64,000 nucleotides of DNA from a bacterium (GCA_963674595.2 CAXXFV010000016.1:128001-192000); one strand, 5' to 3'. Positions 10,663 through 17,901 are shown, counted from the first letter of the stretch. A program made the numbers and translations. The notes: generated by a model not told the origin, from the sequence alone.

Positions 10663-12171
10663 ATGACAGCAGAATTAGCGACCCGTTTCACAACTCTGGA
10701 TTGGTTTATTATATTTTTTTATATCTGTTGTATCACCGGAATCGGTGTTTTTGTGAACCGTTATGTTCACAACACTGCCGGATATATGGTGGGCGGTCGC
10801 TCCGCCGGACTGGCCTTAAACACAGCCAGTTATATTGGAACAGAACTCGGACTGGTGACGATTATGTATGCCGCCATCGAAGGTTTTAATCGGGGCTTCT
10901 CTTATTTAATTATCCCGCTTTTATCGCTGATTGCTGCTTTTTTTCTGGGTCGTACCGGATTTGTCATCACCCGGTTACGGGAAATGAAACTCACCACAAT
11001 ACCCGAGTTTTTTGAAAAACGGTTTAACCGCAAAATACGAGTCACCTCAGCTTTACTGATTGCGTTTTCCGGCATTTTGAATATGGGACTTTTTCCCAAG
11101 ATGGGCGCTACTTTTATTACCTATGCAACGGGATTGGCCGCAACCGGCGATCCGACGCTGGTTGTTAATATCGTCATGTCTGTTTTAATAATACTTGTTG
11201 TTTTGTATACGGTTATGGGCGGCATGGTGGCTGTGATTGTGTGCGACTATATTCAGTTTACTGTGCTGAGCATCGGTTTGTTAATAGGCCTTTATTATTC
11301 CCTGACACTGCCGTCTTTGGGATGGCATAACATAACAACGACCATGGCGCACGTTGGCGGGGAACCTCTTTTTAATCCGTTTCACTCTAAAAGTTATGGT
11401 GTCTTGTACGCTGTGTGGATGTTTGTCATTTATATGACCTATGGTTTTACCTGGGGGCCTGTTGCTTCCCGGGCGCTGACCGCCAAAGACCCGAAAACAG
11501 CAAGACGAACGTTTTTATTAGGTTCACCCGGCCAATTTATACGTCTGGCTATTCCGGCCATGTTTGCGTTTGCGGCTTTTACCTATTTTTATTCACATCC
11601 TGTTTTGGCTGAACATTTTTTCCCCGGCGGTCAACCGGATGCACTCAAAGCGCCGCAGGCCATGCCCTTGTTTTTGGGACAGATCATTCCGGCCGGACTT
11701 ATCGGGGTGCTTGTGGCCGGACTGCTGGCGGCCTTTATGTCCACGCATGATTCCTATTTTTTAACCTGGGCCTCGGTTATCAGCCGCGATATTATTTCTC
11801 CTTTTAAAAAAGGCAAAATTACCGACAAGCAGGAAATATTCTATGCCAGAGTAACCATTGTGTTTATCGGTCTGTTTCTATTGATTTGGGGATTGTGGTA
11901 TAAACTGCCGGAGAGTGTTTGGACCTATATGGCAATTACCGGCAATATTTATGTTACCGGTGCAACCGCCGCTATAATCGGAGGCGTCTATTGGAAAAGA
12001 GCATCCAGCGCCGGCGCCCTTGCCGCCATGTTGGGAGGTTTGTTTTCTGTTCTTGGTATCGTTCCGGTAATATCTGAAAATATATCCATGGGAGTGTTGG
12101 GACTTGGAAATTATATAATTTGCGGTGTGCTGCTGATTGTGTTTTCATTGATTTTCCCGGATAAAAAATAA
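10663..12171 (+). CDS. Sodium:solute symporter (SSS) family transporter
   Basis: About 13 TM helices; 'YMVGGRS', 'TIPEFFEKRF', 'YTVMGGMVAV', 'GLLAAFMSTHDS'. Confidence 0.9.
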   Translation: MTAELATRFTTLDWFIIFFYICCITGIGVFVNRYVHNTAGYMVGGRSAGLALNTASYIGTELGLVTIMYAAIEGFNRGFSYLIIPLLSLIAAFFLGRTGFVITRLREMKLTTIPEFFEKRFNRKIRVTSALLIAFSGILNMGLFPKMGATFITYATGLAATGDPTLVVNIVMSVLIILVVLYTVMGGMVAVIVCDYIQFTVLSIGLLIGLYYSLTLPSLGWHNITTTMAHVGGEPLFNPFHSKSYGVLYAVWMFVIYMTYGFTWGPVASRALTAKDPKTARRTFLLGSPGQFIRLAIPAMFAFAAFTYFYSHPVLAEHFFPGGQPDALKAPQAMPLFLGQIIPAGLIGVLVAGLLAAFMSTHDSYFLTWASVISRDIISPFKKGKITDKQEIFYARVTIVFIGLFLLIWGLWYKLPESVWTYMAITGNIYVTGATAAIIGGVYWKRASSAGALAAMLGGLFSVLGIVPVISENISMGVLGLGNYIICGVLLIVFSLIFPDKK

Positions 12172-12182
12172 GGAGCGCTGTC

Positions 12183-12326
12183 ATGGAATTGTGGATATTG
12201 TTTTGGAAAATAATATGTTTTGTGGGCTTTACCGCATTTATCCTGACCGTATTGTTTATTGTGCCTTTTGGCGCCAGGGACATTATAGGGCTTTTTAAAA
12301 GCCTTGGAAGGAAAAGAACACATTAG
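12183..12326 (+). CDS. 47-aa single-TM protein downstream of the symporter (below the ORF-track cutoff)
   Basis: AAGGAG SD overlapping the SSS stop; MELWILFWKIICFVGFTAFILTVLFIVPFGARDIIGLFKSLGRKRTH. Confidence 0.7.
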   Translation: MELWILFWKIICFVGFTAFILTVLFIVPFGARDIIGLFKSLGRKRTH

Positions 12327-12353
12327 ATGCTGTATGCTTTAACAGATAACACC

Positions 12354-12382
12354 TTGACTTTGTTCTGTTAAAGTTTTAAATT
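12354..12382 (+). promoter_or_regulatory. Candidate sigma70 promoter for the metal-uptake operon
   Basis: TTGACT-17 nt-TAAATT, about 30 nt upstream of ATG 12413. Confidence 0.5.
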
Positions 12383-12412
12383 TAATTTTCTGTCTAATTG
12401 AATTATTAAAGT

Positions 12413-12787
12413 ATGAATATGAAGTCGTTGTTACGATCAAAATTTTTATCATTTTTTGTTATACTTTTTTGTATTTTGTTAAACTATACAGTTTTTTCGA
12501 ATTTGCATTATCATCTGTATAGTGATGGAAAAATAGTTGTACATGGTCATCCTGTGAATCATAAGGGTTCAGATTTACCTGCTGAATCCCATAATCATTC
12601 AAAATTAGAGATGCTCATTTACTCTTCAATAATAATCAATCTTGGGATTTCTTTACAATTATTTTTTATTACGCTTTATCTTTTCAAGTTGTTTTTAGGG
12701 TTTTTGGGGCATATTCAAACATTTTTTAAAGACTTACAATTTTCGTTTTATTTCTTTCTTAGAGCACCTCCATATATCCTGTCTTAA
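12413..12787 (+). CDS. His-rich membrane-targeted leader protein with a C-terminal RAPP motif
   Basis: N-terminal hydrophobic segment, 'HYH..SDG..VVHGHP..H...HNH', second hydrophobic segment, 'LRAPP' four residues before the stop. Confidence 0.7.
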   Translation: MNMKSLLRSKFLSFFVILFCILLNYTVFSNLHYHLYSDGKIVVHGHPVNHKGSDLPAESHNHSKLEMLIYSSIIINLGISLQLFFITLYLFKLFLGFLGHIQTFFKDLQFSFYFFLRAPPYILS

Positions 12788-12963
12788 AAATTTATATAAT
12801 TTATTAAAAAATTAGGCTTGTATTAACCTGTCTCTTTTATTGTGCTATTTATTTAGACAGGTTCATAACGTCTTTATGTGGATTATAATAATCTGCTCAT
12901 AAGCGTTTTTGCCCTGGTTTGATTTATTTAACTATTTATCAAGTATAATCGGAGATTTGGATT

Positions 12964-14289
12964 ATGAGGTTTAAACCTTTTAAGGTGTTTTTATATTGGA
13001 TTATTTTTATTGCTTTGATTATTGCGAACAGTCTTTTTGCTGATGATCAGAAAAATGAAAATAAAATTTCAGAAATGGACCAGAACCAGAATTATAAAAT
13101 TCAAAAGTTGGATTCGTTAATAATTGTACTGGAAGAAAAGATTAATAAAAAAGAAAAAGAAGACGCTTTAAAAAAATTAATGGAAGAAGCTAAAGCACTT
13201 TCTTCTCAACAGCGAAAGAAAAGTTCTGGGATTGGGAAAAAATTTCACTCCGGTGCCAGACAGCAATCCGGTTTGAATCCAAACATCAGTCTTGGTGGAG
13301 ATTTTTTTGGTGCTGTCAGTAGTGAAAAAAATGAATTTATAAATGAACCCAGTGATTTTAATTATGGTACAAACAGATTTGAGTTACGTGAAGTTGAGAT
13401 CAGTTTAAATGCACCGTTAGATCCGTTTACCAGGGGAAAAACCCATATTTCTTTTACAGAAAATTCTCTCAGTGTTGAAGAAGCATATTTACAGTGGCTT
13501 AATTTGCCATTAAATATGAATTTAAAAATGGGTTTGTTTAATGCTGAATTTGGGTTGTTAAACAGATACCATGATCACGCTTTGCCTCAATTTGACAGAC
13601 CAAGAGTTTTGGTCAATACTTTTACCAGCGGTTCCTTGGGTGGTTTTGGGCTTTCGGGTAATTTTTTACTACCGAGAATTCTTTTTTCTGATGCGTCCAA
13701 TTTTGATGCCAGTATTATTCGTGGGGGTAACAATGTGAGCTTTACCAGCGAAGGTGATTATAATCTGATTTATACTGGCCAGTTAATAAATTATTATGAT
13801 ATTACTGAAGATACTTACTTTGAGTGGGTGCTTGGCGGTGCCACCGGGTATAATGATGCTATGGAAGAACACAGAAGCTATCTTGGAAATTTGGGTTTTG
13901 TTGTTAAATGGATTCCAATCGGCAGGGAAAAATACAAAACTATAGATTGGAAAACAGAGTTTCTTGTAAACAAACGAAAGGGACCTGTGGAAACAGTCAC
14001 AACCCGAGGTTTTTATTCTTCGCTTCAAAATAAACTTAATGCAAAATATTGGCTTTCTGCAAGGATTGGTTATTCCGAGTTGCCCTTTGATAAATGCCAA
14101 AATGAACGGGATTATACTCTGTGCCTTGATTATTGGCAGAGTGAGTTTGTATTTTATCGTATTCAATACCAGTATTTACAGCGAAATATCACTCAATATT
14201 TCGATTATACCGGAGATATGCCGGATTATCATACAGTTTTATTTCAAGTATGTTGGGCAATGGGCCCACATAAACATGAAGCCTATTAA
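12964..14289 (+). CDS. Outer-membrane porin/receptor-like protein of metal-uptake operons
   Basis: Signal peptide, coiled coil, 'LNPNISL', 'LREVE...LDPF', 'VEEAY', 'NRYHDHALP', C-terminal 'GPHKHEAY'. Confidence 0.7.
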   Translation: MRFKPFKVFLYWIIFIALIIANSLFADDQKNENKISEMDQNQNYKIQKLDSLIIVLEEKINKKEKEDALKKLMEEAKALSSQQRKKSSGIGKKFHSGARQQSGLNPNISLGGDFFGAVSSEKNEFINEPSDFNYGTNRFELREVEISLNAPLDPFTRGKTHISFTENSLSVEEAYLQWLNLPLNMNLKMGLFNAEFGLLNRYHDHALPQFDRPRVLVNTFTSGSLGGFGLSGNFLLPRILFSDASNFDASIIRGGNNVSFTSEGDYNLIYTGQLINYYDITEDTYFEWVLGGATGYNDAMEEHRSYLGNLGFVVKWIPIGREKYKTIDWKTEFLVNKRKGPVETVTTRGFYSSLQNKLNAKYWLSARIGYSELPFDKCQNERDYTLCLDYWQSEFVFYRIQYQYLQRNITQYFDYTGDMPDYHTVLFQVCWAMGPHKHEAY

Positions 14290-14325
14290 AAGTAATTTTT
14301 AATATATTAAAAATTGGAGAATTTT

Positions 14326-15402
14326 ATGAAACGCCTATTTTCTACGAGTTTTCTGCTGTTTTTTCTCGCATTGTTTTTCGTAAGCAGCCCTTTATTATAT
14401 TCATCGCAGAATCGACATCGAAATCGTGCAGGACAAAAAAGTAAACCTTTAAATATTGTCTGTTCTTTTTCAGACTATGCATCAATAGCAAAATTTATTG
14501 TTCAGGATTATGGTACTGTTGATTATATCGCATCCGGGGAACAGGACCCCCATTTTGTCCCTCCAAAGCCGAGTTTTGCCATGAAATTAAAAGATGCTGA
14601 TTTGTGGATTACAACCGGTATGGATTTGGAAGGTTGGGCGCCTGTTTTGCTGGACAAGGCCAGAAATAAAAAGATTATGGACGGTGAAATTGGTTTTGTG
14701 GCAGTCTCTGATGGTGTTCAGATTTTGGAAAAGGTAGAAAAAGCTGATCGTACTGAAGGTGATATTCACCTGATGGGGAATCCTCACTTTAACACCGGGC
14801 CGACAAAGTGGAGAAAAATAGCTGAAAATATAACAATCGGATTGCAAAAGGTCGATCCGGATAATGCTGATTTTTATATTTCCAGAAGAGACGCATTTAT
14901 CGATAAGGTTGACAGGGCGCTTTTTGGAGATCAATTAGTTGAAATGTTTGGCGGCGAGTTGTTAGTTAATCTTTTGAATAACAAAACACTTTTCGAATTT
15001 TTGGACAAGGATTATGAAGGCGGCAAGCTGGTTGATATACTGGGAGGCTGGTTAAAAGAGGCCCTGCCGTTTCGCGGAAAGAAAATAATGGCTTACCATA
15101 AAAACTGGGCCTATTTTTCCGATATTTTTGGTTTGGAAATTGTGGGCTATATTGAACCCAAACCGGGTATCCCGCCGTCTGCAAAACATGTGCAGAAAAT
15201 GATTAGACTGATTAAAGACCAAAACATCGGAATTATGCTTGTAGCAAGCTATTTTGAAAAAAAATCCCCACAAATGATTGAAAGCAAAACAGGGATTAAA
15301 GCTTTGTTTTTACCGCTTTTTGTGAATGGAATCCCGGAAGTTACGAATAATTTTGAACTCGTCGATTACTGGATTAATCAGATTAATGCCCATATTAAAT
15401 AG
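14326..15402 (+). CDS. ZnuA/TroA-like metal-binding periplasmic protein
   Basis: 'QDPHFVPPKPS', 'GDIHLMGNPHF', 'YHKNWAYF', 'IEPKPGIPPS'; ATG 14326 after GGAG. Confidence 0.88.
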   Translation: MKRLFSTSFLLFFLALFFVSSPLLYSSQNRHRNRAGQKSKPLNIVCSFSDYASIAKFIVQDYGTVDYIASGEQDPHFVPPKPSFAMKLKDADLWITTGMDLEGWAPVLLDKARNKKIMDGEIGFVAVSDGVQILEKVEKADRTEGDIHLMGNPHFNTGPTKWRKIAENITIGLQKVDPDNADFYISRRDAFIDKVDRALFGDQLVEMFGGELLVNLLNNKTLFEFLDKDYEGGKLVDILGGWLKEALPFRGKKIMAYHKNWAYFSDIFGLEIVGYIEPKPGIPPSAKHVQKMIRLIKDQNIGIMLVASYFEKKSPQMIESKTGIKALFLPLFVNGIPEVTNNFELVDYWINQINAHIK

Positions 15403-15413
15403 AAAGATGTAAT

Positions 15414-16244
15414 ATGATAGAAAATTTAATATTTTTATCTGCCCCTATTACGGCAAGTGTTTTACTTGCCGGTATGCTGAGTTATTTTGGCAATCATATT
15501 CTCACCAGAGGTATTATATTTATCGATATTGCACTGGCACAAATTGCCGCGCTCGGTACAATGATCGGACTGTTATTCGGTCTGGTTGAAGGTTCGGGCG
15601 CCATAGAATTTGTGTCATTGGGATTTACGGTCGTTGTCATTGCTGTATTTGCTTTGACCAAATTTGAAAAACAAGTGATACCCCAGGAAGCCATTATAGG
15701 AATTATATATGGATTGGGTTTAGGGCTTGCGATGTTGTTAGCTGAAAAAATTCCCGGTGGGTCAAATTATATAACAAAAACGATTACCGGAAACATCCTT
15801 TGGGTAACCTGGGACGTCATATTGTCCTGTTTGGTTTTGTTTGTTTCTATTTTTATCATTCATTTTATTTTTAGAAAACCATTTATGCAAATTTCAGAGT
15901 CCAGAGACAAGTTGCCGTTTTCAATTAATAAGGTCCGAATGTATGAACTTTTGTTTTATATTACATTCAGTATCATCGTTGTTCGGGCTGTTCAGATTGG
16001 TGGTATATTTTTGGTTTTTGTTCTTTTAATTGCCCCTACTGCAATCAGTACTCTGTTTACAAATAATTGGCTGTATCGGTTCATTTGGAGCTGGATCATC
16101 GGTATTGTTGGTTCTGTTGCCGGCGTCTATATCTCCTATGAGATGAATATTTCCAATGGTCCCGCTATTGTTTGTTTGCTGGGCATAATGGTGTTCCTGT
16201 GTGTCGGGGCAAGATTGCTTTTTAAACTAAAAGTAAAAAATTGA
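15414..16244 (+). CDS. ABC-3 (ZnuB/MntB-like) metal permease
   Basis: 'RGIIFIDIALAQIAALG', 'EAIIGIIY', multiple TM helices. Confidence 0.85.
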   Translation: MIENLIFLSAPITASVLLAGMLSYFGNHILTRGIIFIDIALAQIAALGTMIGLLFGLVEGSGAIEFVSLGFTVVVIAVFALTKFEKQVIPQEAIIGIIYGLGLGLAMLLAEKIPGGSNYITKTITGNILWVTWDVILSCLVLFVSIFIIHFIFRKPFMQISESRDKLPFSINKVRMYELLFYITFSIIVVRAVQIGGIFLVFVLLIAPTAISTLFTNNWLYRFIWSWIIGIVGSVAGVYISYEMNISNGPAIVCLLGIMVFLCVGARLLFKLKVKN

Positions 16245-16256
16245 TATGGAGATATT

Positions 16257-17117
16257 ATGATTGCAGCCTTACAATTTATGATTGCACCTTTTATTGCGTG
16301 TTTGTTATTAATTGGTATAAATATTTATTTTGGAATTCATGTCATCAAGCGTGAAATTATTTTTATTGATATTGCCCTGGCACAGATCGCTGCCCTGGGT
16401 GGGACAATTGCTGCTGTTTTACAAATGAGCCATTCAGAAGGTGTACATCACCACGATGAACAGAGCCTGTTTGTATATTTGTTTTCAATAGGTTTTACAA
16501 CTATTGCCGCTGCTCTGTTTGCTTTTATCAAAAATAAAAAGTTAAATATTCCTTTGGAATCTTTGATCGGCATTGCCTATGCTGTTGCTGCAACCGGGGC
16601 GGTCGTTATTCTGGACAAAGCTGCCGGTGGAGATGTTCATGTTCATGAAATGTTTGCCGGATCTATATTATGGGTTAGCTGGCAACAAAATTTATATTTA
16701 TTCCTGGCTTTTGCTGTTATTGGTTTGTTTCATTTTGTTTTTCGAAAAAAGTTTTTTCAACTATCTGATAATTACTATGGAAAAAAGTCAAGTATGTTGT
16801 GGGATTTTTTGTTTTATGCAACCTTTGGCATAACGGTTGTTCATTCCATTGAGGTTGGAGGTATTTTAACGATATTTGGATTTTTAATCATTCCGGCAAG
16901 TATTTCGGCCTTGTTTTCAACCAGTTGGACCAGTCGTATTATTACCGGTTGGGTTATCGGAACGCTGGTAAGTGCTGCGGGATTATATTTATCATGGACG
17001 GTTGATATTCCCAGTGCCCCTACGGTGATCTTGTTTCTGGGTGTGGCATTGGTATTGGCCCTGCTTTTTAAAACAATACAAAAACATTTGTTCAAAAAAT
17101 CAGAAAAAGCGGCCTGA
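16257..17117 (+). CDS. Second ABC-3 (ZnuB/MntB-like) metal permease with His-rich loops
   Basis: 'REIIFIDIALAQIAALG', 'HSEGVHHHDE', 'GDVHVHE'. Confidence 0.85.
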   Translation: MIAALQFMIAPFIACLLLIGINIYFGIHVIKREIIFIDIALAQIAALGGTIAAVLQMSHSEGVHHHDEQSLFVYLFSIGFTTIAAALFAFIKNKKLNIPLESLIGIAYAVAATGAVVILDKAAGGDVHVHEMFAGSILWVSWQQNLYLFLAFAVIGLFHFVFRKKFFQLSDNYYGKKSSMLWDFLFYATFGITVVHSIEVGGILTIFGFLIIPASISALFSTSWTSRIITGWVIGTLVSAAGLYLSWTVDIPSAPTVILFLGVALVLALLFKTIQKHLFKKSEKAA

Positions 17118-17220: not shown

Positions 17221-17901
17221 TTAGAAATAAATGTGAAACAGCATTTGAATGGAATCCATTTCATCACGAATAACAAGAGAACTGGAACAGTCTGTCTCTC
17301 CTTGTGCTTTTTCATAGCGACAACCGAATCCAAACTTGTGGAATAAAACCATAAAACCAACTTGAGCGCTGAAAAAAATGTCTGCGCTGGTTTCATCTGC
17401 ATGAGTATAGTCAAAGTCAAACGTCCTTCTTTCCTCATGAGAAAGTTGAATTTCCCTTTTTCTTTTATGGCTGTTATCATTGATAAAGGGAATATTGAGC
17501 ATATAAGATGAATAGACATTTATTGAAAATGTCTTACTTTTAAATAAATGATATCCCACTTTTATCGGCAGATTTAAATGTTGAATGTTTATTTTCATAT
17601 TTCCATATACTATATCAGAATCTTGAATGAAAAAGTTTGAAGGCCATGTTATATTCTCCAGGAAAATTTCCCGGCGTGCATAATTCAGCCCAAAGCCAAA
17701 GTAGCCGTTAAATGAACGAATAGGATAAAAGTCTTTATGTATACCGAAACACAGTCCTGGTTCACTTTTGCTGTCTTCATTTCTTAAAGTTGAGCAATTT
17801 ACGCCGATTTCAATATTTGTCTTTGCGGCGTTGGCTTTGCTTGTCAGGCTTGTGCATAGAATAAATATGATAGAAAAAATAGTTAATTTTACTGGTTTCA
17901 T
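17221..17901 (-). CDS. Outer-membrane beta-barrel (PorT/OMP_b-brl_2-like) protein
   Basis: Signal peptide, 'IGVNCSTL', 'HLNLPIKVGY', terminal 'LFHIYF'. Confidence 0.6.
   Translation of the reverse strand: MKPVKLTIFSIIFILCTSLTSKANAAKTNIEIGVNCSTLRNEDSKSEPGLCFGIHKDFYPIRSFNGYFGFGLNYARREIFLENITWPSNFFIQDSDIVYGNMKINIQHLNLPIKVGYHLFKSKTFSINVYSSYMLNIPFINDNSHKRKREIQLSHEERRTFDFDYTHADETSADIFFSAQVGFMVLFHKFGFGCRYEKAQGETDCSSSLVIRDEMDSIQMLFHIYF

Follow-up and report, generated by a model that had tools for sequence, protein, structure and literature searches.

[quoted passage not shown]

The open reading frame at 12413-12787 (+ strand) of the window, the 64,000-nucleotide stretch of bacterial DNA analyzed here (GCA_963674595.2 CAXXFV010000016.1:128001-192000), encodes a 124-residue member of an unnamed family that combines a six-His loop with a C-terminal RAPP motif. 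We favor, with somewhat better than even confidence, the interpretation that it is the leader of a metal-uptake operon and functions as a metal-controlled RAPP-arrest switch that acts through a helix masking the start site of the next gene. To our knowledge, copper is the only metal for which control of ribosome arrest has been demonstrated, in the Cys-based DUF2946 leaders CruR and CutF. By analogy with CruR, CutF and SecM, the protein described here is probably a His-based, zinc-responsive arrest leader. A more specific proposal, that it represents the first zinc-sensing nascent-chain switch, in which an exported six-His loop would read periplasmic Zn2+ and set the translation of a zinc importer, is one that we regard as possible rather than likely.

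The gene begins with an ATG codon, and its product has the hydrophobic helices, the seven-His loop and the RAPP close to the stop codon that the original prediction had claimed. The first hydrophobic helix (residues 11-28; 12443-12496, +), preceded by K4, R8 and K10, would serve as a signal anchor or a cleavable signal; hydropathy, charge statistics and a helix at residues 3-29 in the AF2 model all point to an N-terminal localization signal. The His loop that follows (residues 29-66; 12497-12610, +), predicted from conservation, charge and the AF2 model to be exported, is devoid of Cys and holds seven His, at positions 32 and 34 (HYH; HxH1 codons 12506-12514, +), 44 and 46 (HGHP; HxHP codons 12542-12553, +), 50, and 60 and 62 (HNH; HxH3 codons 12590-12598, +). 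A second hydrophobic helix, by hydropathy and charge a putative stop-transfer segment, extends over about residues 67-99 (12611-12709, +). The putative arrest site R117-A118-P119-P120 (codons aga gca cct cca; 12761-12772, +) is followed by Y-I-L-S and TAA, which places the motif four residues before the stop. In the AF2 model (pLDDT 84.7) the helix at 3-29 is succeeded by a beta-hairpin (31-35/41-45), a helix at 64-113 and a coil tail carrying RAPP, the first strand of the hairpin bearing H32 and H34 and the second bearing H44, with H46 just past the second strand. Foldseek found no structural match to this model in the PDB at E<=0.001, no model of Pfam or NCBIfam matches the protein, and a word-indexed protein search with the single leader sequence returned no match.

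A family nevertheless emerged from an HMMER scan that covered 1.84 billion cluster representatives in full: 290 of them match at E<=1e-3, nearly all 105-135 residues long and about 120 as a rule. In a 62-sequence alignment H32, H34, H44, H46, H62, P119 and P120 are invariant, and H60, R117, G39 and P47 are at least 90% conserved. Among the best 150 of the 290 matches, 138 have RxPP within the last 25 residues (RAPP 90, RGPP 35, RSPP 10, RPPP 2, RLPP 1), and in these 138 the motif ends 1-16 residues, mostly 2-6, before the stop; of the other 12, eight end in K(A/S)PP or HAPP, three are truncated and one is an artefact of a repeat. The spacing of the motifs is likewise nearly fixed, with 12 residues between HxH1 and HxH2 in 136 of 142 members, 16-17 between HxH2 and HxH3 in 123 of 142, and 54-57 between HxH3 and RxPP in 135 of 142, the last distance being bridged by sequence without conservation. 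Within the arrest motif Arg is found in 134 and Pro-Pro in all 142 of these members, positions -12 to -2 are variable, and Bacteroidales members keep YFLxNYHAPP. The overall geometry is that of a His loop, a 24-residue helix, a tail of about 33 residues and RAPP. Averaged over the 142 members, the N-terminal tail has 3.06 Lys and Arg versus 0.30 Asp and Glu, the loop is net acidic with 6.7 His and 0.12 Cys, and the C-terminal tail has 4.4 Lys and Arg; this family-wide charge and hydropathy pattern fits a hairpin with both termini inside and an exported loop. All named members are annotated as 'hypothetical protein', without Pfam domains, in Bacteroidales, Bacteroidota or Chlorobi metagenome genomes, and by the taxa in the record titles the spread of the family so far comprises KSB1/Zhuqueibacterota, Bacteroidales/Bacteroidota and one Chlorobi. 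In two loci (L048, 2538-2939; L049, 2281-2538) leader homologues without the C-terminal motif precede a porin-like gene; in one the tail differs, the other stops short after HAHPYQ, and both are possibly frameshifted or decayed.

Downstream of the leader, on the same strand, lie a gene for a 441-residue protein (12964-14289), a gene for a ZnuA-type (cluster A-I) metal-binding protein (14314-15402; PF01297, E 4e-39) and two genes for ABC-3 family permeases (15414-16244 and 16257-17117; both PF00950). This is the order of outer-membrane, binding-protein and permease genes that had been claimed, with the outer-membrane component now assigned by structural modeling. The 441-residue protein, without a Pfam match above cut-off, carries a signal sequence and a coiled coil. 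Its model, of low confidence (pLDDT 56), contains about 16 beta-strands in addition to a long helix (42-87), and structurally it comes closest to the phosphate porins OprP and OprO (E 6e-6, TM 0.43-0.46), followed by other porins; on this model we describe the protein as a porin-like outer-membrane barrel, with no family assignment. For the binding protein the best alignments are those with B. subtilis YcdH (2o1e) and Synechocystis ZnuA (1pq4), in which it retains His at three aligned positions, DPH, NPH and YH-NWAYF, which we take to be the three Zn ligands of ZnuA-type proteins. In Mn-type binding proteins the third ligand is presumably Glu, and His at this place presumably marks Zn-type sites. 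Because the binding protein has this three-His, ZnuA-type site, the metal of the operon is most likely Zn2+. The stretch 12964-17117 includes the binding protein and two ABC-3 permease genes and no ATPase gene, and the next gene after the second permease (17221-17901) is on the opposite strand; the ATPase-less layout is also seen in loci L015, L019, L021 and L024.

The association of the family with metal uptake recurs in relatives. In a leader-first search of 61 genomes, 60 related ones and the window's own, family members were found at E<=1e-3 in 20, and the window's genome has three copies, the one described here and, on another contig, a tandem pair in front of a TonB-dependent receptor gene. 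The 20 loci examined hold 22 family genes, every one with a RAPP (15) or RGPP (7) tail, and 21 of the 22 head operons with a TonB receptor gene or with porin-like, ZnuA-type and ABC-3 genes. Fourteen stand directly before a gene for a CarboxypepD_reg-Plug-TonB-dependent receptor, two of these receptors being open at contig ends and identified by tblastn. Six precede a homologue of the 441-residue protein and two ABC-3 permeases, with a ZnuA-type gene between the porin-like gene and the permeases in five and an unscanned 1.1-kb stretch in the sixth (L017). One (L031) is followed by four small genes and then by TonB receptor, DUF1007 and NicO genes, and one (L002) is at a contig end, with its downstream genes beyond the sequence. 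The expectation that homologues would conserve HxH...HxHP...HxH...RxPP upstream of metal transporters was thus borne out (138 of 150 for the motif, 21 of 22 for the context). In L031 (344-7056, -) the small genes are three without a Pfam match and, third of the four, a PepSY_TM-like one, and the NicO-type protein is a nickel/cobalt-type transporter.

Approaching the same association from the other side, a porin-first search with an alignment of the porin-like protein yielded 80 loci in KSB1, Zhuqueibacterota, Bacteroidales and Bacteroidota metagenome genomes, as titled in their records. A same-strand leader lies upstream in 56 of the 80, or in 56 of 71 if only loci with sufficient upstream DNA are counted; the 24 loci without a leader divide into 9 with less than 700 nt upstream and 15 with ample DNA, the latter speaking against the arrest-leader interpretation. 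Among the porin-first leaders, 31 end in (N)YHAPP, including all Bacteroidales-titled ones, and 23 end in R(A/G)PP. The tandem leaders of the window's genome, RGPP then RAPP, precede one TonB-dependent receptor at G000:C23:332955-333826 (L013, 5938-6827, -), and a second tandem pair is present in L020 (6144-7195); two leaders in series could integrate two signals.

Conservation of this kind would also be expected if the protein were a small inner-membrane component of the uptake machinery, with a periplasmic His loop that binds metal or hands it on between the outer-membrane channel and the binding protein, while RAPP merely slows translation or tightens coupling. We consider this rather unlikely as the whole explanation, and it can hold together with the arrest-leader interpretation. 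The confident AF2 model, a folded hairpin with a His-bearing beta-hairpin, agrees with such a role, as do the layout and size conserved over the whole length of the family, the constant presence of the leader in operons with transport proteins, and the DtxR-type gene upstream of the leader in L023, L025 and L030, which could supply the regulation. However, such a role by itself would leave unexplained why a motif that bacterial proteomes avoid stands 1-16 residues, mostly 2-6, from the stop in 138 of 150 members, why so constant a distance separates the third HxH from RxPP, and why codons of the tail show predicted pairing with the next gene's start region.

For the interpretation that we prefer, an arrest leader under metal control, the following sequence of events is proposed. 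Judging by charge bias and hydropathy, the first hydrophobic helix would bring the growing chain to the membrane, and export of the His loop would take place. The ribosome would then stall at R-A-P-P, as is known of RAPP, RGPP and HAPP peptides elsewhere, and would cover the RNA from the Pro codons to the stop codon, a segment predicted to pair otherwise with the initiation signals (ribosome-binding site and AUG) of the gene that follows. For as long as the stall lasts, the start site would be kept open and the operon translated, in the manner of SecM, MifM, VemP and CutF. Metal bound to the six conserved His would fold the loop, and this folding together with insertion of the second helix would pull on the chain and end the stall, upon which the masking helix would re-form and uptake would be off when metal is plentiful, the polarity of CruR. 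The second hydrophobic helix ends about 20-30 residues ahead of Pro-Pro and would therefore be just out of the tunnel when the ribosome is at RAPP. In SecM, MifM and VemP the stall exposes the start site of the next gene, and Zn-dependent folding of a zinc-finger domain can release the SecM stall, a precedent for the idea of a pulling force. Here the His loop would lie across the membrane from the ribosome, and any signal path from it to the peptidyl-transferase centre is speculative.

The RNA element of this model was found by folding. The intergenic region between the leader and the porin-like gene is 176 nt long and very AT-rich. When 12740-12990 is folded, positions 12766-12785 (5' arm ACCUC.AUA.AUCC.GUCUU, +, reaching from the Pro codons to the stop codon) pair in both the MFE and the centroid structures with 12952-12970, within the initiation region of the porin-like gene (12951-12970, +; GGAG 12951-12954, AUG 12964-12966), and the predicted long-range helix covers part of the GGAG and the AUG; the fold z-score of the region is only -1.97. 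A hairpin is predicted within the intergenic region (UAUUAACCUGUCU / AGACAGGUUCAUA; 12821-12867, +). Its 3' arm can instead pair with 12778-12790, and pairing of the arrest segment with a second candidate partner, 12849-12861, would compete with this hairpin. On 11800-13400 Rfam gave only a sub-threshold miRNA match and thus no known riboswitch.

Pairing between the arrest segment and the next start was then assessed at 65 loci, with the downstream start set by a signal-peptide rule independent of RNA pairing. By duplex energy the arrest segment falls within the top 10% of leader windows of equal length in 32 of the 65 loci and within the top 5% in 28, and it beats shuffles at z<-1.64 in 29; as the loci are related to each other, these statistics and those that follow overstate the case. 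Top-10% pairing is seen with both kinds of tail (R-type leaders 16/34, H-type 16/31) and by operon in 31 of 55 porin-type versus 1 of 10 TonB-receptor-type loci. In the unconstrained ensemble at least 5 arrest-to-start base pairs are expected in 32 of the 65 loci, and the mean is 6.48 versus 1.62 for control windows (Wilcoxon p=3e-5), with at least one control window also reaching 5 expected pairs in 25 of the 65; the window locus itself has 14.9 expected pairs versus 0.3 for its controls. Start-region pairing is absent in about half of the 65 loci and in 9 of the 10 TonB-receptor-type ones. Although the Pro codons CCU CCA by themselves complement purine-rich start regions, the duplexes have different sequences at different loci and often involve variable codons of the tail as well as the stop codon, which is the pattern expected of a conserved helix beyond Pro-codon/purine complementarity. 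A masking test in which a 30-nt stalled-ribosome footprint was forced unpaired gave a less favorable outcome. Over the 65 loci the mean predicted accessibility of the start region rose from 0.359 to 0.378, versus 0.366 with a control mask (Wilcoxon p=0.38), a rise of at least 0.15 occurred in 6 loci versus 1 with the control mask, and the window locus went from 0.23 to 0.33. This result is not significant and counts against the start-site unmasking model. Pairing of the arrest segment with the start region is, on these predicted structures, a plausible regulatory output.

A leader of closely similar architecture is CruR (Bp2923) of Bordetella pertussis, a metal-responsive RAPP leader whose stalled ribosome, according to the parts of PMC9426467 consulted, blocks Rho-dependent termination in a 162-bp intergenic region. 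Like CruR, the leader described here is a small exported protein whose gene opens an operon that includes an outer-membrane metal importer, has its ligand motif at a fixed distance from a RAPP that lies three to four residues before the stop, is followed by a long intergenic spacer, and is expected to shut off uptake in the presence of metal. The differences are that CruR has CxxC where the His family has six His and next to no Cys, that its ligand-to-RAPP spacing is 45 residues rather than 54-57, that the His family has a second hydrophobic helix between sensor and RAPP, and that the target in the window is a porin-like gene with a ZnuA-type ABC importer; in addition, the predicted output here is start-site unmasking and that of CruR is Rho. 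Membership in DUF2946 (PF11162) was considered and rejected, as the window protein has no match at E<=1 and lacks CxxC. Indeed, PF11162 is found above cut-off in 0 of the 61 genomes, though 20 of them carry the His family, and it is not among the matches listed, which cover 25 of 36 families, for the 62 members. These results agree with the claim of a version without CxxC whose ligands would be His.

The likeness to CruR raises the alternative that the stall at RAPP has the same output, that is, that it blocks Rho-dependent termination in the 176-nt intergenic region and leaves the start site alone. CruR itself acts in this way with an intergenic region of similar scale, the KSB1-type and several TonB-receptor-type loci have spacers of 120-350 nt in which start pairing is mostly absent, and the footprint-mask test was weak. 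At the window locus, however, this output leaves the strong predicted start pairing without a role, and the very AT-rich intergenic region speaks against it as well; we judge it unlikely here. Start-site unmasking, which we prefer, has its own counterpart in CutF of Rhodobacter capsulatus, a DUF2946 protein whose stall, in the portion of the preprint consulted (bioRxiv 10.1101/2025.02.05.636593), melts a stem-loop that shields the next ribosome-binding site. Both would be nascent exported leaders through which periplasmic metal is read by a stall at a C-terminal Pro-rich motif, whereas CutF responds to copper, belongs to a Cys-based family, controls the detoxification target CutO and stalls when metal is present. 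Since the leader described here heads an uptake operon, a polarity opposite to that of CutF is to be expected, as in CruR; by analogy with CutF, the reverse polarity may instead apply.

The case for arrest itself draws on what is known of the motif. [quoted passage not shown] So far as these sources were covered, the family resembles SecM, MifM, VemP and the ApdA/ApdP/RQH peptides in joining an N-terminal localization signal to a C-terminal RAPP, RGPP or HAPP, and RQH-type arrest peptides in having HAPP and RGPP variants within one family. As in the RQH type, the motif is close to the C-terminus (RAPP at residues 117-120 of 124), it is conserved in an otherwise variable C-terminal region, and the leader lies upstream of its target on the same strand. 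This resemblance would also suit a leader that, in the way of MifM or SecM, senses the capacity for membrane insertion or export (Sec/YidC) and not metal, with the His loop serving some other purpose: a localization signal, a RAPP-like motif and, about 30 residues away from the arrest site, a hydrophobic segment make up the layout of a monitoring substrate. We find this improbable. SecM, MifM, VemP and ApdA/ApdP stand before secA, secDF or yidC and lack conserved metal ligands, whereas in the His family the downstream genes are for metal uptake in 21 of 22 cases and never for Sec or YidC, and six conserved His are hard to explain without a metal. That the ORF is a chance or mis-called one, as might be suspected from the lack of curated family matches and the abundance of open frames in AT-rich DNA, can be dismissed in view of the 290 homologous cluster representatives, the invariant residues and the fixed gene order.

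Part of this ground has been covered before. Fujiwara et al. (EMBO J 2025; PMC12992588, in the parts consulted) reported that RAPP/RGPP small ORFs are enriched upstream of TonB-dependent receptors and metal genes, and the Figure 4 source data of that paper contain members of the His family, within its 'TonB-related' class, as hypothetical proteins encoded upstream of TonB-dependent receptors (HAHPF 21 times, HAHPY 20 times), so that the novelty is less than the original prediction had supposed. The main-text passages to which our comparison extends contain no mention of a six-His family, its spacing, HAPP members, a porin/ZnuA link or RNA pairing, and in the main text so covered histidines are mentioned only for Streptomyces proteins. 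A literature search on arrest peptides returned nothing on a zinc- or His-based leader. The principle is thus already known, both for metal-controlled RAPP leaders and for RAPP/RGPP ORFs before TonB receptors. New here are the link to porin-like genes and ZnuA-type ABC importers, the KSB1 members, the HAPP subfamily and the fixed geometry, as well as the pairing with the next start site, recurrent and covarying among loci, and the negative masking control. Another small His/Cys-rich membrane protein, a member of the uncharacterized DUF6769 (PF20558) that ends in RAPPLA, is encoded in a related genome at L117:1492-2037 (-), upstream of a membrane-fusion (efflux adaptor)-like gene, which suggests that DUF6769 too consists of arrest leaders, perhaps of metal-efflux genes. 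Its likeness to the His family is confined to the RAPP tail (hhalign probability 0.5%, 13 columns), and membership of the window protein in DUF6769 was rejected on this value and on the lack of a PF20558 match.

How the leader may itself be transcribed and repressed bears on a further claim, that of post-transcriptional metal control in which Zur and NikR are dispensable. The promoter expected before the leader has a counterpart in a sigma-70-like match (TTGACT-17-TAAATT, 9/12; 12354-12382, +), although such matches are common in this AT-rich stretch, with 11 found versus 5.9 expected; TTGACA-like sites also lie upstream of the leaders in L032, L033, L036 and L054. A perfect 10-bp inverted repeat (CTTTAACAGA, 17 nt, TCTGTTAAAG; 12337-12373, +) overlaps the -35 hexamer, is followed by TTTT, and may represent either an operator or a terminator belonging to the upstream gene. 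A promoter-like match within the intergenic region (TTCATA-16-TATAAT, 10/12; 12862-12889, +), if real, would give transcripts without the leader. An 8-mer search, a crude test, of 65 leader upstream regions recovered A/T-rich words only and no shared operator. Further upstream, a 47-codon ORF with one hydrophobic helix and AAGGAG 8 nt before it (12183-12326, +) lies directly 3' of a sodium:solute symporter gene (10663-12171) and may encode a small subunit.

As to transcription factors, the genome of the window (97.6% complete) has no Fur-family (PF01475) gene by a search that was positive in 13 of 14 control genomes, and it has one DtxR-type gene (G000:C36:26713-26916). The claimed independence from Zur is thus possible in this organism but does not extend to its relatives in general, 47 of 60 of which have a Fur-family gene. 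In three loci (L023, 6591-7208; L025, 6580-7152; L030, 6800-7339; all -) a DtxR-type (Fe_dep_repress) gene lies upstream and abuts or overlaps the leader start; some loci therefore combine a transcriptional metal repressor with the leader, and metal control without transcriptional regulators is not general.

The family heads probable importers of zinc and other metals in Bacteroidales and KSB1. If the proposed switch is real, an unrelated, His-based family would have arrived at the same architecture as the Cys-based leaders, and the principle would have been invented more than once; it would also extend to another metal and, beyond TonB receptors, to ABC importers. The fixed geometry from His loop to RAPP offers a testable design for linking an event outside the membrane to the peptidyl-transferase centre, and a name and model for this large unnamed family would improve the annotation of many metal-uptake loci. 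In the Fur-less genome of the window the leader could, if this holds, be the main zinc regulator, and a zinc switch of this type would be widespread in Bacteroidales, gut lineages included, and in KSB1.
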